A DNA stretch of 59,746 nt, counting the filler, from Dimargaris cristalligena (lineage: Eukaryota): the NCBI GenBank assembly GCA_003614675.1. It is 9 parts of 9 records of this genome, joined end to end, with 100 filler letters (N's around TTAATTAATTAA, not from the genome) between each part and the next. Parts side by side here need not be neighbours in the genome. Positions count along the whole stretch, not along the records: positions 13,406 to 19,983 come from ML003503.1; 8 more parts are not named here. One strand, given 5' to 3'. The position numbers and the translations under genes are program-made. This document shows, one piece after another, positions 13,498-51,900 of this stretch. The notes under the pieces are model-generated. The model worked only from the letters and a program-made list of their open reading frames with translations, was not told where the DNA came from and did not search any database. The first letter of the stretch is position 1. Every line of letters begins with the position of its first letter.

Positions 13498-14286
13498 ATA
13501 TCATCATTGCCTTGGGTTAAATATTGGATGGATTATTACCGTGGACTGGGCATTGGACGGAGGAGGCGTGCGAGTCTGTTTCCCTTCATACACACCAATA
13601 GACTCCGGCCACCCGTTGTCAGTAATAGTTTCCATCCACCAATGTAAGAACGAAATTGAATGGTATGGTATGGTGGGGTAAAAGCCCTTTAATTGTACAA
13701 GGGAAGGGCCTCCTTCTTCCACTGGCTGGGCCTACACCGTGCCCCAATCCTTCTTGAGGAGGGGGGGGGGCATCTGTCTATTAACACCTATGGTGCTCTC
13801 CTTTAGACAATCAATTACTACTTGGTTCCTCCTTCTCCAACCCAACCCACATGAATTGGCAAATACATGGTGTAAATACCATTTACGGACCAACAAGGGC
13901 CACGCAAGTCGGTAGAGATTGGCACTGGACGAGAGAACGAGAGAACGAGAGAGGTGGCAATTATATACTGGTCGCTCAGCCTAGCCAGAAGTAATCTCCC
14001 GGATAATCTCACCAGGCCAATTCTTGAGATATTGGATTGCATTGATATAGTAAGGGAGAGGAGAACCCTGCAGGGAAGGCTCTGGATAAAACTATACGCT
14101 TCTTCCCATGAGCTTTATAACAGCCCATTCCTCCACCACCACCATCTTTCCTACCTTATATACCTGACCAGTATCCTCATTTCTGTTATTCACCCCAGTC
14201 CCATTGCCTCCCGACGTCTACGCTCCCCTCAACCCGCCCATTCCCCTCCTACTGCCACTCCCTTGCCAGGCACTCGCTCACTCACT

Positions 14287-15045
14287 ATGCGCGCCTACAT
14301 GTACAACGACCAAGCCACCAGCGAGGCCCACGAGAAGGTCCCCAATGAACCTGTAGACCTAGAGGCTTTGGCCCGCCTCGGGGTTCTCTATTGGGCTTGC
14401 GACGGCCCCGACGGTCGAGAAAAGATGGAGCAAATCGCCCGAGACCGCGCCTACAAGAACCGTGACGAAGTGGTCATCTCCCCCGACCGGCTGCCCAACT
14501 ACGAGGAAACACTCAAAATCTTCTTCACCGAGTAAGTACGACACTCGCACAACCATACACCTATACCATCATCCCAGAAAACCCCATATTAATGTGCTCT
14601 TGGAGACCCGCTTCTTGACCCCCCTTTTTCCTCACCCAATGATCCCCCCACCTGCGCTAATCTCTGCTCCCTTATTATATACTTCGAAATACATGGATCA
14701 TCAATATTAACTACCCCCTTACTCTTCGCCACTCGACCTTGATCCTGGGACATCGCTAACAGACATATCCACGAAGACGAGGAAATCCGCTTTATGCTCG
14801 ACGGGTCGGGCTACTTCGATGTGCGGGACCAAAACGACCGGTGGATCCGTCTACAAGTTACCGCCGGTGACTTGATTGTGCTACCCGCCGGCATCTACCA
14901 CCGTTTTACCCTCGACAACTCCAACTACATCCAGGTGATACGTTTATTCCGTGACCTCCCCAAGTGGGAGGCCATCAATCGCCCCCTGGCCGACCAGATC
15001 GAGTGCCGCCGCATTTACTTAGAGAGTCTCCTGCAGGCCGCTTAA
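14287..15045 (+). CDS. ADI1: Acireductone dioxygenase (methionine salvage); exons 14287-14531, 14763-15045
   Basis: Spliced product contains [21 protein letters not shown] and [17 protein letters not shown] (ARD cupin motifs). GTAAGT donor and CTAAC-AG acceptor keep frame. Confidence 0.95.
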
Positions 15046-15375: not shown

Positions 15376-16833
15376 TTACGGAGCAATGCGGCGACGTAAG
15401 GCCTCGGCTTCCTGGGCCATAAATTGGATTTCGTCGTCATATGTTCGCTCATCGTCACTAAAAAACCCCACCGATTGAATTCGATATTTAGTTTAGTGAT
15501 ATACAGTTTAAAAAATCAGCAAGCCATTGTAGACAAATAGTCGTCAGTCCAATTAGACGTACAAGCGGATCGGGAGATAGTCGTCGGAAGTGGCGACCAA
15601 GAGTACTCCGTCAGTCGTAATTAAAACTGTAATGAAATACTAAATAAAGCATATATGCTTATCAACGGACAGCCAACTAAATCCACCACTTACCTATCGT
15701 CCTCCGCACCACTGCCATTGTCGTTCCCCTGGTCATCGTCATCACTATACGCATTGTGTTGGCGGGGAAGATCATTAAGGGACACTTCGGCAATCTTTTG
15801 TAGGGCGGCTTCGAGATTGGCCTCCTCGAGCGTTCGCAGGTGTTCGTTTTGGAGCTGGATGGACTCTTCGACACTAATTACTTTAACACAACTCTGGGCC
15901 TAATCAGATATTCCCGGACCAGTCCAACGGTATTTATATAGGGGTCGTACAAGGAGAGGTGCACAGGGTGGTTTGAATAAGTCAGGAAATATACACCACA
16001 ATAGTCTTAAGTGAAATGGCTATCCTTAACGTAGTAGGAACGCACCGCCTGCCTAGCTTTAAAACGGCTACATTAGATTCACCAATAGAGGCTAAAAATG
16101 GAAACCCATATATACTTACCCGAGCTTGTCGGGGTCCGATGGATTGGCGACGGGTAATACTCCCTGGTTTAGCCGACCCACTCTGGCCGGATGGTAAAAA
16201 GGTACTAGGAGTGGCATCCGGTTTGTCCGAGTTGCTGCTGGTGTTACGGGCGGGGTCCGACTTCGTCACGCTATCCGAGTCCAAATCCATCGCCGATGTT
16301 GACTCAGGTAGTTCTAGCGTCTTCAAGCGTTCACGGATAAGGCCATTGGTATGAATGATCCGAGCCCCCTTGTCAGGTAAGCTCCGCACCATTTTCCTGT
16401 AACGGGGTGGTAACAGACGAGGTTCACCGCCACATAATACATATGAAGAAAAATAAGAGAATTTTGCCGACTGTTAAAACATCCAGCGACCCAGATGGTG
16501 ACTCAATTTAGATGGTAAATATATAATAAAACCCAAGACGAAGCCCGGTACTATTCTGCAGCAAAAATTCAGTGACTCAACTTACCCGTCTTTCAAAAGG
16601 GCTAGGTTCTTCGCCAGCAAATCTTGAAGTCCAGTCACTGATAGATGCTCAATGTCTTTAACCGGCCCCATGCGCTGTCCCAGGATGGTGAAGCTGAACA
16701 CATTCCTTCGGCTACGGGGAACTGGTGAGCGTAGAGACGAATTGGTCGAATGGGCAGTAGTGCCCCGGGGCTCCGCCGAGGGATGCGTCACTGGGGATGG
16801 GTTAGGCGAATTAGTGGGGGAATCGCAGTCCAT
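15376..16833 (-). CDS. Putative Gdown1/POLR2M (GRINL1A)-like Pol II-associated protein; exons 16833-16586, 16396-16120, 15899-15694, 15457-15376
   Basis: Phase-consistent GT-AG splicing gives LSVTGLQDLLAKNLALLKDG|KMVRSLPDKGARII (LPDKG motif) and C-terminal KVISVEESIQLQNEHLRTLEEANLEAALQKIAE plus an acidic tail. This matches my recollection of both conserved Gdown1 regions. Confidence 0.68.
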
Positions 16834-19983: not shown

Positions 19984-20083
19984 NNNNNNNNNNNNNNNNN
20001 NNNNNNNNNNNNNNNNNNNNNNNNNNNTTAATTAATTAANNNNNNNNNNNNNNNNNNNNNNNNNNNNNNNNNNNNNNNNNNNN
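19984..20083. other. Artificial contig spacer
   Basis: N44-TTAATTAATTAA-N44. Confidence 0.97.
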
Positions 20084-20460
20084 GTTATCCTACACCAAAC
20101 ACCCACCGCCCCACTCACCCCGGTCGAGTATGACCGGGAAATGAACCATATTCTCGATCGGTTAGAGAAACTCTTTGGGGATATCTGATAGTAGTATCTT
20201 CCCCTGATTATCCGCTTCCAACGCCCTCCTTTTACTGTTTTAGAGGGACATCCCGGTAACTGTTTCATTATTTTACATTGGGCGTCCCCTTGGTTTACCC
20301 TGGGCAACCACTCTAGTGACGTACTCGTATGTACCGCGGCATTCCCGTCTATTTTCTTTTTGGATATTTTAATTTGTATTTTTGGGGTTTCTGGTCCTGT
20401 ACCCGAACCCGGGTATATGAAACATACGGCCTTTATATTTTCATCATCGGAGGATTCCAT
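20084..20460 (-). CDS. Possible 5' end of a hypothetical protein (MESSDDENIKAVCF...), open at contig edge
   Basis: ATG-initiated frame open to the gap; no recognisable motif; may contain an intron or be a relic. Confidence 0.25.
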
Positions 20461-21784
20461 AGTGGACGAATGGTCCAATCGAAATCTCGCTCGTCTAGCT
20501 ATACAGCTCAGGCCATTAATTGCTTTTTTTGCCCACCTAGTCGTCCGATGCACACTATACCCACTGTTGTTCTCACACATTTTACATTTGTATATTAACT
20601 TCCGGCAATACCAACCCTCGATTCCACCTACTTAAAGTAATTCCCTGACCCGCCACCCGCCGGATGGACTAGGTAATGGTTCGAATGTATAGGGCGCCTG
20701 TGGGTGTAAAGCGAAATCCAAAGAGAGGTGCTGAAAATAAAGTTAAGGAAAATGGTCCATCTTATTAATGGCGGAGATGCACTATTTATTGACTTTTATA
20801 GTTAAGTCGTGTTAGGGTTTTAGGTAGAGCACTGAGCCGCGGGGGGGGGGGTTGGTTGGTCACTTCGGCCACAGCCTTCCCGTATTCGATCTTTCCGAAT
20901 TACAGGAGAAGGGCTATTGGCCGAGAATTAAACGTGGCCACCGCACTAATTGGTCACCGCCCTCATTCTAATGTGATTTAATTACAGAAACGTAGCTTGG
21001 CGATGTTTTTTTTGAAGAGCCGGGGGATGAGGAGGAAATAATCCCTTTGACCAGATATTCTGAAGTGGGATATAATAGGTTTGGTGAATTTCCAGCAGGT
21101 ATTTGGAAAGGGGAAGTTCGCTCTTTTGGCCCGTCTAGGTGGGGCTATAGGCTTGCCAGATTGGAAAGCCTAGTATAGCCCAGAGGGAGTAATGGCGCAA
21201 AGGCTCGAGAAGGTCACCAGCAGGCCCAAACCTGGTTAGGGAATCTCACTTGGCTATATCCCCAAATGCCTCTGTAATCAGCTTGCACTAAACTGCGTAG
21301 GCGCCTTTTCCAGACCCTATATTTCAGAAGGCTATGAGATAGTGTCCCGTCTTTGTACGAAACAAAGCCCCGCTTTGCACTGATGATGGTGGCCTCCGTC
21401 CGCGTTCCCTTAAATGAACCGAAATAAAGCTTACAGAATACCTCGGCCATTTCGCCCAGCAGGGCCGTATAAGCGAAGTGGCCTGATCCTTAAATATCGA
21501 GAACTCTATATATCAATATGAGCACTTTGTCACCCTCCCCTTTTTACGTCCATTGGGGATAGACTGCCTAATTATAGGGCCTCTTACTGGACTCGCGTTT
21601 AGAATAAAGATTTATAGGCGTGTTGGCGGTTCATTATCAGCAGAGAAGCGGTAACCAAAGTCACTACAAAATGGCACAGCTTGGGCGTGGCTAAAGAGAA
21701 ACAGATGATTGGCGAGGGGGGAATGAACGTCACTGTATGTAAAAAATCAATGGTGGGGGGAGGGGGTTGCAGGCAAACGGGTGC

Positions 21785-27336: not shown

Positions 27337-29154
27337 TCGCCGGTTGTGTAGTGTAATCAATAAATTTCCTACAAGTATCTGCGCCTCTCTTCAACAAGGG
27401 CGGGGTATACTGGAATAAGGGGTGGAGCGCGGCCATGAGTCACATTGCTCGTCTACGCTGTTAAGCTATTTTAATAAATATTTTTAAAATACGAGGGATA
27501 CTGGATGAAAGACGGGTTTTTAGAGTTAAAGTGACTTAGCGAGTGCGGTGGTTGGTAAGACGATCAGTTGACGAAAGTTTATCTATTAGTTAAAAGCCGG
27601 TTTGCTCGGAGACGTCGATGCTTGGCCGCTCGATTGAGCCGGAACGGGAGGCGACATGTGATGGCTAGGTAGGGTTAGTTGATGTGTGCATTATTCATTA
27701 GTAGTGATTGCGCCATGTCGGGTTGTGGGTGTAGCGGAGCCTAACTAGTACGGCGGTGGCTGCGACAAGGACTAAGCGGCGGCCGATATCAGCGGAGGGG
27801 TATATTGTATGAATAATACATTCGGAGTGAGTCACAGAAAGTACCCACCATAACCTAAAATACCCTTCGCAATTGGCTGGCATATACCCACCCCCCCCTG
27901 GCATGAAACTGCTGGGTGTATGCGCATAGATAGACAAGGGAGAAGGCTCGGGTAGCGTGATCCGGCTAGCACTGTAGGGCACAGGTCAGGCGACCCTAGG
28001 AAACCCCAGGAGAGGCGGGGCTGGTGATTGGCCTGGCCCATGTGATGCCTCCACCAATACTACTGGCCTTACTATCCCCCAACATCGCATCATTTAGAGT
28101 TGTAAGGATGCCATCCAATCTCGCCCTGTTATCCGCCACCTTGTCTGCTCTACCTACAGAAAGGGTGGTAGTATAAGTAGTAATGGATGAGGGAAAGGGT
28201 CTGCGGCACTCCTTCCCGCCTGCTCTTGGCCAATGCCGCGACATCCTTCATAAGCAACTCACGCTCTATCTGGCTCATCATCCATAGGCCCTGCCGCGAA
28301 TCCGAGGGCCGATCGCCCCACACCCTCTCACTCACACTCACTTCTTGGCTACGAATCGGCCATATTCCAATCCTTCCATTCCCCTTGCCACTAGGTGCTA
28401 CGCATATACTGCAACCCTCACGACTCCTTTAGCCGCACCCTATAAATATCGCGGCCCCGCCAGTCCCCGGCCAGGTGCCTATCCCCTCGCCCCTCTTGTT
28501 CCCCCTTGTTCTCCCAATTCCACCCGCTACTATTATCTTCTACCCTACCCTATTATTTCTTTCGAATCTTCTATCCCCCCTTTCCACCTTTCCCGCCTCT
28601 CCTTGTCTTGTATCGGGCCGCCGCTGTCACGCGCTATTCCACCCGTTCTCGGGGTGTGTATATTACGTTTACCCTTGTTCGCCTTACCCTGCTGTATTAC
28701 TACTTCCCACTTTCTTATTCTTGTTTTCATTATCACGCCTATCCCCCTTATTCTAAACCTTCTCCATCTCCCCTACCGACATTTATATTATCTGCTGCCC
28801 CTCTCATTTCACCAACCCCGTCCCTTCTCCATACTTGACCGTCAACCCCAGTGCCCCGCTTTTCGCCAGCTCGTCATAACCAGCATATTGCATATATCTT
28901 GCCATTTGCTTTATAAATACCACCCACTACCCTTCAATACGATACCACGCACTTGCAATCCCACCCCCCCTTTACAACAACTACGCCTTTAGCTGGTCTC
29001 TACCGCGTTTATTTTTGGTGACTTTCCCGCAAGTTTACCTTCCACCTTCAATTAATTATTACCCAATATTCCCCTAGCTCGCTCAAACTCGGCCTGTTAC
29101 TCTCACCAGCCACACTTTCATTTTCCCAGGCACCCATTTAAACTACTACTGCCC

Positions 29155-31299
29155 ATGTATTCCGTGTCCTTATTCTCCGCCTATGGGCTGGCTGCCCTGT
29201 TGGCGTGCTCTCCGAACCCCGCCTCGGCCCACGCTCCTTCCCGTCGCGCCATCCAGCCCTTCGGTCCGGACCTTACTCAGCGCTCGTATGTGCAATTTCA
29301 GTCTGAGACCTCCCAGTTCCGTAGCTACCGTCTTCCGTCCAAGGGAAGCCGCCAGAGTGTCTGCTTGGACTCCGCCTTGCGCCACGCCATGGAACAGGGT
29401 GGTCTGACCGAAAACGGCTTTATTGTCAAGGACTCCTACCGCTCCGAACACAACGGCGTTACCCATGTCTATCTCCGCCAGCTGTACAACGGCGCCGAGG
29501 TGGTCAACGCCGACATGAACCTCAATTTGGACGCTGACTGTAACCTTATCTCGGTTGGCAGTTCATTCCAACCCGGGGCTAGTTTGGCCCAACCCCCGGT
29601 TGCCAAATCCTCCACGAATCTCTGGTCCTATCTCCGTAACCAGGCCGGGGCTCTGAGCCAGGTTATCTTCGGCTTCAATCCGGTCAACAGCGACCTGTCT
29701 CTGTGGCGCAGCGAATCCCACCCCGACGACTCTTTCCTTACCGCAGTCGACCCCCTTGCTGACCACAACTCGGTCCATCCCCGCATTTCCCCCCAGAAGG
29801 CCTTTGGTCACCTCCTCGAGCACATCGGCGAAAGCCTCCCCGAGGGCCATGACATCCACCTGGAGCAGGTCAACTCTCTGACCGAGGAACCCTACTCGGT
29901 GCTGACCAACGTGCCTCACGCCCAGGACAACAAGGTCCCCGTCCGGCGTCACTACATCCTGAACGGGCAAAATGAGCTCGAAGAGGTTTGGGATATGGAA
30001 ATTGAGATGGAGGAAAACTGGCTCCACGCCCATGTTTCTACCACCACCGGTAAGGTCGTGTCCCTCATCGATTGGGTGGCTGACAGCCAGTACAACGTCT
30101 ACCCCTTGGGTGTGAACGACCCATTGGAAGGTAACCGCACTCTTCTTACCGACCCCCATGACAAGAAGGCATCCCCCTTTGGCTGGCACGACCAAGGTAA
30201 TGGTAAGAAATTCACTGATACTCGCGGTAACAATGTCTATGCTCAGGAGAACCTGGACGGCATGTACGAGTGGATGAACAAGGGCCGTCCCGATGGTGGC
30301 GAAACCCTCAAGTTTGATTTCCCGCTCGACCTGATGTCACAGCCGGGCGATTATCTGGACGCCGCAGTGACCAACCTGTTCTACATCAACAACATGGTTC
30401 ACGACCTGTTCTACCAGTATGGTTTTACGGAGAAGGCCGGTAATTTCCAGGAGAACAATTTCGAGCGCGGCGGTAAGGGCAACGACGCAGTGATTGCCAA
30501 TGCTCAGGACGGTTCGGGTTACAATAACGCCAACTTCGCCACCCCACCTGATGGCCGCCACGGTAAGATGCGCATGTACGTGTGGAACGGCATCGATCCC
30601 AACCGCGACGGCGATCTGGAAAGTGGGATTGTTATCCACGAGTACGCCCATGGTATTTCCACCCGCCTGACTGGTGGCCCGGCTAACTCGGGCTGTTTGG
30701 GATGGGGAGAGGCCGGTGGTATGGGTGAGGGTTGGGGTGATTTCTTCGCCACCATTTTGCGTACCCGTCCTGCCCACAACAACACCATGGTTTTCTTCAT
30801 GGGTGAATACGCCAACGCCGGCGAGGGCATCCGCCGTTACCCCTACTCGACGAGCCTGGATGTTAACCCGTCTACCTACAAGATCATGGACAAGCCTGGC
30901 TATTGGGGCGTGCATGCCAAGGGCGAGGTCTGGGCCGTGATTCTCTACGAAGTTTTCTGGGCCCTGGTGGACAAGCATGGCTACACTGAAGACTGGTTCT
31001 CTGCTTCCCCTCACCACGGCAACACCCTGGCCCTGCAGCTGGTTGTCGATGGTTTGGCCCTCCAACCCTGCCGCCCTAGCTTCATGGATGCCCGTGACGC
31101 CATCATCCAAGCCGATACCGTTCTGACTGGAGGTCAAAATAAGTGTATCCTGTGGAAGGCTTTTGCTAAGCGCGGTCTCGGTGTGGATGCCAACATCCGC
31201 GGCGACACCCCGTGGGGTGGCGGTGTCCGTGCCGACAGTTTCAAGACCCCTAGCGACTGTGGTGACGACGTTCCCTCCCCTCCTTCCGATGACGAGTAA
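29155..31299 (+). CDS. Fungalysin (M36) extracellular metalloprotease, prepro-form, intronless
   Basis: Signal peptide; FTP propeptide (NGVTHVYLRQLYNGAEVVNAD); YNVYP mature start; HEYAHGISTRLTGG zinc motif; GMGEGWGD; LQPCRPSF. Confidence 0.96.
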   Translation: MYSVSLFSAYGLAALLACSPNPASAHAPSRRAIQPFGPDLTQRSYVQFQSETSQFRSYRLPSKGSRQSVCLDSALRHAMEQGGLTENGFIVKDSYRSEHNGVTHVYLRQLYNGAEVVNADMNLNLDADCNLISVGSSFQPGASLAQPPVAKSSTNLWSYLRNQAGALSQVIFGFNPVNSDLSLWRSESHPDDSFLTAVDPLADHNSVHPRISPQKAFGHLLEHIGESLPEGHDIHLEQVNSLTEEPYSVLTNVPHAQDNKVPVRRHYILNGQNELEEVWDMEIEMEENWLHAHVSTTTGKVVSLIDWVADSQYNVYPLGVNDPLEGNRTLLTDPHDKKASPFGWHDQGNGKKFTDTRGNNVYAQENLDGMYEWMNKGRPDGGETLKFDFPLDLMSQPGDYLDAAVTNLFYINNMVHDLFYQYGFTEKAGNFQENNFERGGKGNDAVIANAQDGSGYNNANFATPPDGRHGKMRMYVWNGIDPNRDGDLESGIVIHEYAHGISTRLTGGPANSGCLGWGEAGGMGEGWGDFFATILRTRPAHNNTMVFFMGEYANAGEGIRRYPYSTSLDVNPSTYKIMDKPGYWGVHAKGEVWAVILYEVFWALVDKHGYTEDWFSASPHHGNTLALQLVVDGLALQPCRPSFMDARDAIIQADTVLTGGQNKCILWKAFAKRGLGVDANIRGDTPWGGGVRADSFKTPSDCGDDVPSPPSDDE

Positions 31300-44729: not shown

Positions 44730-46525
44730 TCAACCCTTCCATTTGGCAAACCACGATTTGAGGCATTGCACCGTCGTAATACAGTCCGGGTTCTTGTCGT
44801 CGTTGTCGAGGTCATCATTTGATTGAAGGTCAATTTGGAACCAATCCTCGGGTAGGTCGGGGTGACCAATCTCGGCTATGGAACCGCGTCGAGGTGAATG
44901 ATTGATCGTCGTTGAAAGATAATCAGTCTTACCCATAGGAAGTGAGGTTCGGCAGATTGGACCTCGAATAATCACAGGTCGGGGCTCGAATAATCTCCTG
45001 GAATCAACATCGTTTGGCGGAATTGGAGCCGTCGAAGGTCGAATAGTTAACTGTATGTGATCGGGTGCCGACCTAACAGGTATATGAGAGCTACCCAGAG
45101 AGCCCTCTAGAGACAAATTATAGGTCTCATCAACCAAGTCCGCTGTATTGGTCGGAGACGGAATCGGTATAACAATATGATTGGTCATCATAGGTGAGCT
45201 TGGAACTGGCCCAAAGACGTCGGTGATCGAATTAATCGCATTATCCTCAAAAGAATGGCCGGAATTGGTCGGAGCGGGCTCAGGAGTCACAGTCGACGCA
45301 CGAGAAAATTCGGCGGTGGTGGATGGAATACCAGAAACATGGCTATGGAACTCACTATTGGTAAGTTTAATGTCGGATAAATCAGCTATCATATCTGTAT
45401 AACCCTGAGCGAATTTACATTCTGAATGTGCGTCATCATCCGGATCGTAGGTGTAAGTATTAATTGAAATCGGATTTGAAGCGGATGCAGAGGCAACGGG
45501 AATCATGGCAGCACCGGTGACGTCGGTTGAACTAGTAAGCACCGGAATGCCGAGGCTATTATCAGCAAACCTGATGTTAGAGGAAATAGCGAGCGCATTC
45601 ACGCTATCTTGGGAAATATTACTGGCGAGAGTGCCAATCAGAGTCGGGATCGATCCAACAGATAATAAAGAAATGTGTTCGGCCGTGGTGGTGGTGTCGT
45701 CATCCGGGGAATTGTACATGGACATTTCGAGGCCGTTTCTAGCGATTTCACTGGGAGAGGAAATGATCGGCGAATTGACATAATTCTCGGGTAATTGGTC
45801 AACCAAATGTTCAGCATTCGCGGAATCACAAACCAGGGTCTCAGTTGGAGCCGGATCCAATGTAACGGACGATGCAGAGATATGACTGGCCATGCCATTG
45901 GTGTTGTCGTCTGAGGTATTGAACATGAACATCTCGAGACTGTTGCTAGCGAGTTGAAGGTGAGAGGACATGGCTAGTAAGTTAGAAAATAGGTCGACCA
46001 AAAGTTCGGCATTAGCAGGATTAACGACCAGGGCCCCGGTCGGAGCCGGCTCCGATGCGATAGAAAATGAAGCAAGATGGCTGGCCATGGTGGTGGTGTC
46101 GCTGTCCGGGGAATTAAACATGGACATTTTGAGGCCGTTGCTAGCGAGTTGAAAATGAGAGGAAATGGCTAGTAAGTTAGAAAATAGGTCATCCAAAAGT
46201 TCGGCATGAGCAGGATTAACAACCAATGCATCAGTCAGAGCTGGCTCTGATGCAACAAACGATGAAGAAATATGATTAGTCGTGTCGATGGTGTCGTCGT
46301 TCGGGGTATTGTGTATGGACATCTCGAGTCCGTTGCTGGCAGATTCAGGGTGAGGAGTGATGCCCGGTGAATTGGCGTAATTCTCGGGAAATTGGTCAAC
46401 CAAACGTTCGGCATTCGCGGGTTCATTGGCCAGGGCATCAGTTCGAGCCGGCTCGGATGCAATGGACGATGGCGAAAAATGATTGGCCACGGCTTCGGTA
46501 TCGTCGTTCGGGGTATTGTGTATGG
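44730..46525 (-). CDS. Acidic Ser/Asn/Pro-rich protein with tandem ~65-70 aa repeats (5'-truncated)
   Basis: Frame open from the contig edge to TGA at 44730; at least 4 repeats of ..H.S..S.ASEPA.T.AL...PANAE.L.D....N......ASNGLEMS..N.P.DDT; no known domain recognised. Confidence 0.7.
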
Positions 46526-46625
46526 NNNNNNNNNNNNNNNNNNNNNNNNNNNNNNNNNNNNNNNNNNNNTTAATTAATTAANNNNNNNNNNNNNNNNNNN
46601 NNNNNNNNNNNNNNNNNNNNNNNNN
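46526..46625. other. Artificial contig spacer
   Basis: N44-TTAATTAATTAA-N44. Confidence 0.97.
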
Positions 46626-48923: not shown

Positions 48924-51900
48924 TGTTTCAAGTGTGGAAAAACTGGACGTTTCATGGCCGACTGCCCTCAGAGAAGAAACCCCAAAATTCAACAAGTTGG
49001 GATTACTTTGATTGCAACTCAGAAGATGACTCCTCCAGTGTTTTGACTACTGAGGATAAATCTGATGCTGTTGTAACCACTGTTACTGCTACAGATATTG
49101 GATCACAATACAAAATCCATGTTCTAGTTAATGGGGAACCCCGTGAAGCAGTGCTTGACACTGGAGCCTAAATCTCAGTTATCCCTCAGTCTCTCTTGCC
49201 CCAGGAGGTCAAGGATATACCCTCCATAGGCTCTGGGTACATTGTACTAGGTGATAAGAGAGGTATTGCAGTCAGCTGCTATGTGGAAGTGGAAATAACA
49301 GTGGGAGCAGTAGTAGTACCAGTTACTGCTGCTGTATTACCCTATGGAAGCTTTCTGCTAGGGACCAACTGGGCAGATCAGGCCCAGCCAGTCATTGATA
49401 TTGCCCGTCGAACACTGGCTCTGGGTGGATAACAGACTACCCTCAGAGTAATCCACCTGACAACTATACCTCCTGGAGGTTTAGTAGCTACCCCTGTCCA
49501 AGCCGATGGCCTTGTACTAGTGACTGCTTTTGTGCATACCTTGCACCACCATACCACCCGAGCCCTGGAAGGAATAGCTGCATTTACCGACCAAGAAACC
49601 CAGGTCATGGTTAGGAATCCCACTGGGGAACCTATAGTATTGATGCCCAAAACTCGAATAGCAACTGTATCGGCTGGTCCTGAAATCACAATGTCCACTG
49701 ACCTCCCCTTAGGTAAACAACTGACCTTAGAGGAGCAAGAAACCTTGACCAAACTGGTTAGTAAATATGGATTCTTTGCAGAGAACCCTAAGCAACCCCA
49801 TGTAACTGCTAGTACCACTCATCAAATCAAGTTACTGGATACAAAACCAATTCGAAGTCGGGCCTACCAGACACCATGGGCAAAAAAAGGCAAACCTAGT
49901 CAAGGAAGTCCAGGAAATGTTGGAAAATGGGGTCATTCAGCCTTCCAATAGTGCCTGGGCAACTCCCATTACCCCAGTACTGAAGAAGGATGGCTCTACT
50001 TGGTTCTGTGTAGATTACTGAAAATTAAACAAAGTAACCAGAAAAGATGCCTATCCCCTACCCAGTATCGAAGAAGCCATTGACTGGTTGGGATCTGCCC
50101 GATATTTTACTACCCTGGACCTAGCTTCCGGGTATTGGCAAATTCCCATGGAGCCCGGTGACATTGAGAAGACTGCCTTTACAACTGGTGATGCATTGTA
50201 TGAATTTACAGTGATGCCTTTTGGATTGTGCAATGCCCCAGCCACTTTTCAGTGATTAATGAATGAGGTCTTGGGTGAGCATATTAATGTTTGCTGTCTA
50301 GTTAATCTAGATGATATTATTATCTTCTCCCCGGACTTTAAACAACACTGTCAGGATATTCAACAAGTACTTCGTACCCTTCAAAAGCATGGCCTCCAGC
50401 TTAAGAAGAGTAAATGTACTTTTGGTGCCGATTGTGTACCTTACCTAGGGCATGTGGTATCTCGGGAAGGAATTTGACCCAACCCCGAAAAAGTTGAAGC
50501 TGTATGGGCTATGCCACCACCAACTAACCTCAAAGGAGTACAAAGTTTCATTGGGCTCACCTCTTATTACCGGTGGTTTGTACCTTGATTTTCAATGAGG
50601 GCCACCCATTTACGCCGATTAATGCAAAAGGGTATTCCATTTACCTGGGGTGAAGCTGAACAGGCTGAATTCGATGACCTAAGGAATGCACTGACCACTA
50701 ATCCCATCCTACGCTACCCGGATTTCAACAAACAGTTCATCATGCAAACGGATGCCTCTGATCATGGTGTGGGTGCCATCCTAACTCAGCGGGAGGGGAA
50801 AGAGGAATATGCCATAGCATATGCTAGTGCCAGTCTTGAGAAAGCCCAAAAGAATTATACGGTCACTGAAAAAGAATGCCTGGCTGCAGTGTATGCTCTA
50901 CAGAAATTTCGACCCTATTTATATGGCCGTAAGTTCATCCTGGAAACTGACCATGCTCCACTGAAGTGGTTACAATCAACTACCCCTCGTTCTGGATGTT
51001 TGGAACGATGGTATCTCACCCTCCAAGATTATGATTTTGAAATACATCACCGACCTGGGAGAATATACAATAATGCTGATGGATTGCCCTGGTTATCCCT
51101 GCCTACTGCACCATCTGAACCAGATGGGGCAATGGTAAATAGCTTGAACATTGAAAGTCTACCAGAATTTTGTATTCGTCAATGCCACCCCAAGGCTACC
51201 CTTCCTAATCGAGGTACTCAAGGGTCAGCAGGGTATGGCCTATATATCTACCGAAAAATCCACCTTAGTCCTCATAGTTTTCAAGCTGTTGCTATTGGAT
51301 GGGCTCGTCAAATGCCATCCCAGTATCACACTCAGATTCGGGAGCGAAGTTCATTAGGAATCCAAGGTATTGCAGTTCGTGCTGGGATTATAGATAGTGA
51401 CTACCGAGGGGAAATATCTGTTGTCCTACATAATCTAACTGCAACTGAGTACACCCTTATGCCCCAGGCAAAGATTGCTCAACTACTATTTATCCCTAAC
51501 GGAATCCCTGATTTAGTGGAGGTAGCTGAACTGGATAATACCCAACGGGGGAATGGTAGTTTTAGTTCTACAGATAGGCCTTCCTTGGAGAATTCCGTGG
51601 TAATTGAAGCTACACCAAAAGCCCTTCTGATATCTGTTGCCAATGACCAAATGGGTCTCGACCAAAAGAATGATCCGGAAATTGGTAACCTAATTCAATG
51701 GATGGGGGACAAAACTAAATAATCATTTCGGGGCCGAGGCCAAACCTTTACCATTCAAGAAGGATTAGTATATCAAACAGTTAATGGTATTAATCGCCTA
51801 TACCTACCTGCAGTACACCGTCCTTCCGCCCTCACTGCAGCCCTTGAAGCTATGGGGGTTGGCCATTTAGGTACTACTACGGTACAGCATCGTCTCCAAC

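Follow-up and report, generated by a model that had tools for sequence, protein, structure and literature searches.

We describe a gene in a 59,746-nucleotide stretch of DNA (the window) from the fungus Dimargaris cristalligena (assembly GCA_003614675.1; Kickxellomycota, order Dimargaritales), composed of nine parts joined by filler. The gene occupies positions 15376-16833 on the minus strand, in the part taken from ML003503.1, and consists of four exons and three introns. We propose that it probably encodes a divergent homolog, and likely an ortholog, of metazoan Gdown1 (POLR2M, also named GRINL1A), a protein that binds RNA polymerase II (Pol II). At the level of sequence, it is well supported as a divergent member of the Gdown1/POLR2M family that has both conserved blocks of the family in the right order. 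These blocks are:

N block, 16312..16659, minus strand: residues 59-111, spanning intron 1; three predicted helices with the motif LPDKG between helices 2 and 3; putative counterpart of the RPB10-binding region of human Gdown1 (residues 19-73)
C block, 15774..15884, minus strand: residues 181-217; one long predicted helix; putative counterpart of the protrusion-binding region of human Gdown1 (helix alpha5, residues 305-344)

The spliced product of 270 amino acids is letter for letter the NCBI 'hypothetical protein H4R33_001234' of Dimargaris cristalligena, which was retrieved with exon 2 as the query and is called P0001 below.

Evidence for membership of the Gdown1 family

Human Gdown1 is the best and sole significant match among sequences of the PDB. 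When P0001 alone is the query, the human GRINL1A chain 28jc_M/9t5h ranks first of the eight sequences found at E<=10 (E 7.6e-4; next E 0.27), with residues 59-111 aligned to human 14-66 and, collinearly, residues 181-235 aligned to human 302-355. A profile made from the eight fungal proteins only (A2) finds the human protein at E 2.7e-9 and 40.3 bits, with three sequences at E<=10 and the next at E 4.7; its N block aligns to human residues 14-68 at 33.5 bits (independent E 3.3e-7). An earlier reading of the window from its letters only (the sequence-only reading) had quoted a C-terminal block for the human protein, and this block agrees with the human chain found in the PDB search.

The same family is recovered by an exhaustive phmmer comparison of P0001, as one single-sequence query, with 1,835,955,588 protein representatives. 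At E<=1e-3 there are ten matches: P0001 itself, seven other fungal proteins, and two animal proteins, from Lingula (E 9.3e-5) and Chelonus (E 7.6e-4), both named 'DNA-directed RNA polymerase II subunit GRINL1A(-like)'. No other family is present, all ten matches are 191-296 amino acids long, and the nearest relatives outside fungi, comprising both non-fungal matches, thus carry the GRINL1A name. For each animal protein, the top-scoring stretch is the C-terminal half (query residues 120-252 and 109-253). Both also clear the gathering score of Pfam GCOM2 (PF15328), at 57.5 and 50.1 bits; this cut-off, 27 bits, is the operational threshold of one model that covers just the N-terminal part. The seven fungal relatives share both blocks and the overall architecture of P0001.

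These matches also bear on TTF2, an SNF2-family termination factor to which P0001 might be akin instead of Gdown1. The shared LPDKG motif alone speaks for such a kinship. Pfam shows neither an SNF2 nor a helicase family in P0001 at E<=10, none of its phmmer matches exceeds 296 amino acids while two are named GRINL1A, and its best match among solved structures is Gdown1. TTF2 is a large protein. We therefore excluded a TTF2 relationship on size and the lack of an SNF2 match, and consider it exceedingly improbable.

Direct comparisons of the fungal and animal proteins were made in both directions. The fungal and animal profiles align in hhalign over 58 columns of the N block (probability 97.4%, E 1.2e-11), and BLASTP of P0001 against the Lingula protein gives two collinear high-scoring segment pairs, at E 2e-8 and 3e-6, of which the second is the C block. 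When an N-block profile built from fungal sequences only is run on the animal proteins, they score 38.1 and 32.1 bits, and the highest of 10,000 shuffles reaches 12.6. With the corresponding C-block profile, the two score 16.7 and 11.0 bits and place first and third among 10,002 sequences (best shuffle 14.2). An animal-only profile (Lingula and Chelonus) in turn finds all eight fungal proteins at 17.5-47.7 bits, above every one of 8,000 shuffles (best 12.5), and scores P0001 at 24.9 bits for an N domain and 27.3 bits for a C domain. This animal-only profile aligns to human Gdown1 at residues 15-82 and 300-348 only. Because it meets the human protein in the same two blocks and nowhere else, the unmatched human middle is no evidence against the membership of P0001. 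On these alignments, the fungal protein keeps what animal Gdown1 proteins themselves keep.

It could also be argued that P0001 is no ortholog at all: an unrelated disordered protein that carries a portable, three-helix Pol II-docking module with LPDKG, and whose C-terminal resemblance is a chance match of amphipathic helices rich in Glu, Gln, and Leu. This would be consistent with the marginal statistics of the C block taken alone, with the presence of LPDKG in TTF2 too (PMC4007455), and with structural look-alikes of residues 55-112 that include plant SNF2 ATPases and ULP1D, although the latter are leads only. However, in 8/8 fungal and 2/2 animal proteins the C block keeps its relative position and its place in the order, it falls in the C-terminal half that scores best for both animal phmmer matches, and the animal-only profile gives the C domain of P0001 its 27.3 bits. 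Length (191-296 amino acids) and architecture, with a disordered middle and an acidic tail, agree as well, and animal Gdown1 proteins have just these two blocks in common with the human protein. We judge a chance resemblance of this kind to be improbable, and continue to read P0001 as a Gdown1 homolog.

Several observations nevertheless weigh against that assignment. The Pfam check proposed in the sequence-only reading came out below the gathering score, as GCOM2 matches P0001 at 16.2 bits (E 0.013; positions 7-97 of the 214 in the profile, over residues 78-162) and exon 2 alone at 16.8 bits (E 0.0082). None of the eight fungal proteins reaches the cut-off: five match weakly (14.1-18.0 bits) and three have no match at E<=1. 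The C block alone is marginal against the human chain (independent E 1.3 with P0001 and 0.75 with A2), one C-block shuffle (14.2 bits) outscores Chelonus (11.0 bits), and hhalign reported the N block only. The two animal sequences were chosen for matching P0001, so P0001's scores against them involve some circularity, from which the human PDB match is free. The N-terminal three-helix module may be portable, given its look-alikes in plant SNF2 ATPases and a SUMO protease and the LPDKG of TTF2 (PMC4007455); the N block alone is therefore no proof of orthology. One human contact residue, R33, is not kept (A78 in P0001). The true ortholog suggested in the sequence-only reading is thus borne out as a homolog with both blocks in the right order, by PDB search, hhalign, BLASTP, and shuffles, while orthology itself is only probable.

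Two further Pfam matches, RNF34L-like_3rd (15.8-17.7 bits against a cut-off of 27) and DUF5938 (E 0.27), were rejected as chance. Word-indexed protein searches returned P0001 only, both with exon 2 as the query (1/144 candidates) and with P0001 (1/1057 candidates). With alignment A1, the same kind of search recovered, out of 8000 candidates scored, no more than two sequences that already belong to A1, and does not amount to a survey of fungal or Dikarya proteomes.

Gene structure and annotation

Exons were placed from stop-to-stop open reading frames (ORFs) and splice signals, and then checked by script. The gene model, in the order of transcription, is:

Exon 1, 16586..16833, minus strand: 248 nucleotides; ATG at 16833-16831; residues 1-82 plus 2 nucleotides of codon 83; N-terminus of low conservation, and N-block helix 1
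Intron 1, 16397..16585, minus strand: 189 nucleotides; GTAAGT...AG; 40% GC; separates helix 1 from LPDKG
Exon 2, 16120..16396, minus strand: 277 nucleotides; residues 83-175; LPDKG at 16366-16380, helix 3, then a disordered linker rich in Ser, Pro, and Thr
Intron 2, 15900..16119, minus strand: 220 nucleotides; GTAAGT...AG
Exon 3, 15694..15899, minus strand: 206 nucleotides; residues 176-243; C block (long helix) and the beginning of the acidic tail
Intron 3, 15458..15693, minus strand: 236 nucleotides; GTAAGT...AG; its retention would end the frame immediately, inside the donor
Exon 4, 15376..15457, minus strand: 82 nucleotides including TAA; residues 243-270; acidic stretch and clade-specific C-terminal helix

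The spliced frame is open over 813 nucleotides (270 codons and TAA), the exon phases agree, and the introns are lower in GC (39-42%) than the exons (52-56%). Without splicing, the frame ends after residue 83, and the whole protein is therefore visible in no single ORF. The sequence-only reading was right on this point, and its four phase-consistent exons are real, lying on the minus strand with a spliced product equal to the NCBI model. It also listed a helix (residues 64-82), LPDKG (residues 89-93), a disordered linker, an SVEES... block (residues 184-213), and an acidic tail following it, all of which are present. It erred in calling the gene hidden, since the gene is already an NCBI model and is only without a name.

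The model was made by a gene finder, and it could in principle be an annotation artefact or a dead gene, with exons that are not joined or not expressed. We consider the chance of this to be very small. The three introns are canonical (GTAAGT...AG) and of lower GC, the 813-nucleotide frame is open, and the exon 4 peptide is kept in 4/4 Dimargaritales. The peptides flanking every exon junction are conserved in relatives, and the spacing from helix 1 to LPDKG across intron 1 is gap-free in alignments with fungal, animal, and even human relatives. Conservation across the junctions thus supports the predicted joining of the exons and, because it spans all of them, makes an artefactual gene model unlikely.

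A small uncertainty concerns the acceptor of intron 2. A second in-frame acceptor AG lies 6 nucleotides downstream (15894-15895, within 15893-15899, minus strand), and its use would remove residues 176-177. Relatives are about four residues shorter just past this junction.

Predicted structure and contact residues

P0001 is predicted to be mostly disordered, with a mean AlphaFold2 predicted local distance difference test (pLDDT) score of 63 for a model built on a 10-sequence alignment. Confidence is high in three places only, the two blocks and a helix near the C-terminus described below. Residues 61-111 have pLDDT 90-92 and form helices 66-81, 83-88, and 94-111, while residues 181-217 have pLDDT 87-94 and form a single helix, 185-217. 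Residues 1-42, 115-177, and 222-245 are mostly below 50. A Foldseek search of this model against the PDB (library to April 2026) gave no match at E<=0.001 (best E 0.98), a result that is uninformative for a mostly disordered protein.

The cryo-electron microscopy study of human GDOWN1 (PMC13443923) describes three contact regions on Pol II. The RPB10-binding region (RBR, residues 19-73) consists of three helices with LPDKG and sits on RPB10 and RPB3. The external-binding region (EBR, residues 224-255, helix alpha4) sits on the external and protrusion domains of RPB2 and on RPB12, and the protrusion-binding region (PBR, residues 290-344), which contains the long helix alpha5, on the protrusion of RPB2. 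The predicted helices of P0001 agree with this description, with three in the region matching the RBR and one long helix in that matching the PBR. The same study names R30, R33, L44, and L303/L304 as functionally important (PMC13443923). In the single-protein alignment, L44 corresponds to L89, a residue that hardly varies across the family, R30 to K75, and L303/L304 to V182/I183.

Gdown1 is reported to need its LPDKG motif to bind Pol II tightly and to block TTF2, and the Xenopus variant of the motif is LPDRG (PMC4007455). Among the fungal proteins, the motif takes the forms LPDKG, LPDGG, LPDQG, LPDRG, and LSDKG, with RTDRG in the truncated model from Dispira. D91 and G93 are invariant.

P0001 has one further predicted helix near its C-terminus. 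This amphipathic helix, residues 249-268 (15385-15444, minus strand, exon 4; pLDDT 84-86), ends in an Arg-rich stretch. In the alignment it is conserved in 4/4 Dimargaritales, and is missing from the chytrid, Blastocladiomycota, Glomeromycota, and animal relatives.

Possible role in the cell

A Gdown1 protein would be expected to bind Pol II tightly and in a salt-resistant way, to compete with TFIIF and TTF2, and to be relieved by Mediator. By analogy with the human cryo-electron microscopy structure (PMC13443923), the N block (residues 59-111) would dock on RPB10 and RPB3. For the C block (residues 181-217), the long helix, which follows two hydrophobic residues, V182/I183, in place of L303/L304, would dock on the RPB2 protrusion, as its counterpart does in the human complex (PMC13443923). 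The flexible, disordered linker would bridge the two docking sites. Bound at both, the protein may cover the TFIIF surface and keep Pol II incompetent for initiation. Pol II in this state could be repressed in the nucleus, still unreleased after assembly, or both.

Alternatively, a true Gdown1 homolog could have a mainly cytoplasmic job, riding on new Pol II (or an RPB2 subassembly) during biogenesis and nuclear import, and not act as a Mediator-reversible 'Pol II(G)' repressor. Human GDOWN1 is found on cytoplasmic, fully assembled Pol II with RPAP2 and GPN1/3 in two structures from 2026 (PMC13443923, PMC13486763), and is described as strictly cytoplasmic in somatic cells (PMC9728996). In the single-protein alignment, the positions of the human motif NES2 (L332, L336, I338) fall on P0001 I211, L216, and D218/L219, within a stretch, residues 211-219, that has hydrophobic residues at I211, V214, L216, and L219. 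However, this pattern is only hydrophobic spacing inside a helix. NES1 and CAS fall in parts of the human protein beyond the two alignable blocks, and neither motif is recognizable in P0001. Nothing in the sequence separates the two roles, so that neither nuclear, Mediator-reversible repression nor the escort of fresh cytoplasmic Pol II is favored by it. We regard a mainly cytoplasmic role as a possibility, though a rather unlikely one.

Distribution and origin

The fungal relatives found by phmmer are:

P0002, Dimargaris verticillata, Dimargaritales: E 4.8e-23
P0003, Tieghemiomyces parasiticus, Dimargaritales: E 3.2e-20
P0004, Dispira parvispora, Dimargaritales: E 4.8e-11; model truncated
P0005, Chytriomyces hyalinus; P0006, Paraphysoderma sedebokerense; P0008, Polychytrium aggregatum; P0009, Ambispora leptoticha: E 3.4e-5 to 6.8e-4

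With P0001, they represent Kickxellomycota, Chytridiomycota, Blastocladiomycota, and Glomeromycota. All eight are hypothetical, uncharacterized, or without a descriptive name at their source, and none (0/8) is above the Pfam threshold. None of the eight is from Dikarya, within the limited reach of a search with one query sequence. Relatives in four fungal phyla support an origin of the family before the animal-fungal split, as the sequence-only reading had suggested, and on these sequences the family is probably older than animals.

Published accounts up to 2026 describe Gdown1 as 'metazoan-specific' (PMC13443923), 'metazoan-restricted' (PMC8887472), and 'absent in yeast and worms' (PMC3852498), and such accounts tie its appearance to animal-type promoter-proximal control. 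The literature searched, which left subscription journals and supplementary files outside its scope, yielded no report of a fungal or plant Gdown1. The relatives found here push the origin of Gdown1 back to at least the opisthokont ancestor, and its absence from model yeasts would therefore be a loss. They also indicate which parts are ancient, namely the RPB10-binding and protrusion-binding regions, while EBR, NES1, and CAS look lineage-specific. Comparison across these lineages can help to decide whether the ancestral role was nuclear repression, a mitotic role, or the escort of newly assembled Pol II.

No non-animal member was found in print, but some already seem to be flagged in databases, which lowers the novelty at that level. 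The Atlas feature search with the whole of P0001 places it beside an 82-member cluster (score 0.91, 200/256 features) whose commonest phylum is Mucoromycota and of which 11% carry PF15328. Atlas also sets P0001 beside an arthropod GCOM2 cluster, and, as described next, a plant cluster reaches 55%. The value of the finding is limited, in that this is a known family, the Pfam domain seems to be recorded already in some fungal and plant proteins, and any function is putative.

The Atlas structure search with the whole of P0001 gave template modeling (TM) scores of 0.12-0.18, which are meaningless, and the feature search with residues 55-112 gave no usable match. The structure search with residues 55-112 (16309-16671, minus strand) gave look-alikes that, for so short a stretch, are leads only. 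They are a cluster of 93-amino-acid plant proteins, 55% of them with PF15328 (TM 0.88), plant 'CHROMATIN REMODELING 24' and green-algal SNF2 ATPases (TM 0.82 and 0.77), and the plant SUMO protease ULP1D (TM 0.74). Together with metazoan TTF2, these look-alikes hint at a portable, pan-eukaryotic Pol II-docking module.

A broader scenario can be drawn from these observations. A bivalent Pol II clamp, with a three-helix LPDKG module seated on RPB10/RPB3 and a helix bound to the RPB2 protrusion, would have been present in the animal-fungal ancestor. It would still hold Pol II inactive in early-diverging fungi, and would have been lost in Dikarya and nematodes, while the N-terminal module may be older and portable across eukaryotes. 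We consider the probability of this scenario as a whole to be evenly balanced.

Other genes in the window

A Pfam scan of the window frames shows that the surroundings are ordinary eukaryotic genes. On the plus strand, an acireductone dioxygenase (ARD) gene has its last exon at 14743-15045; this gene is convergent with the Gdown1-like gene, and about 330 nucleotides separate the two stop codons. A fungalysin (M36) metallopeptidase, at 29056-31299 on the plus strand, has a propeptide motif and an uninterrupted frame of 747 amino acids; such a peptidase is of note in a mycoparasite. A retroelement fragment at 50589-51722 on the plus strand has a 377-amino-acid open frame, with reverse transcriptase-RNase H domains followed by a dUTPase domain. 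The window also holds an ORF with a Na/Ca exchanger domain, a dynamin, and a PGAP2IP/CWH43-like protein. The scan found no Pol II subunit in the window. Three long open frames have no Pfam family at E<=1e-5: 44730-46577 (minus strand, 615 amino acids), 13876-14535 (plus strand, 219 amino acids), and 20032-20631 (minus strand, 199 amino acids).

Comparison with known systems

TTF2, the metazoan SNF2-family Pol II termination factor, has the LPDKG pentapeptide in common with P0001 (PMC4007455). TTF2 is an SNF2 ATPase, whereas P0001 has no ATPase domain and no long protein among its matches.

P0001 also differs from human Gdown1 in several respects. It is 98 residues shorter, and the human EBR (residues 224-255), NES1, and CAS have no recognizable counterpart in it. 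For the EBR, there is neither a match nor a predicted helix in residues 115-177 of P0001, and the animal-only profile likewise fails to align this region to the human protein. The extra C-terminal helix at residues 249-268 is confined to Dimargaritales and is not found in human Gdown1.

Several features are shared with metazoan Gdown1. The identity of P0001 to the two animal members is about 24-30%, and its size is near that of these invertebrate proteins (283 and 296 amino acids). The order of the blocks is that of metazoan Gdown1. Both have an N-terminal three-helix region with LPDKG, a long disordered middle, and an acidic tail. In both, the C-terminal part contains a long helix that starts in a turn of the Ser-x-Glu-Glu-Ser type, just past two hydrophobic residues.

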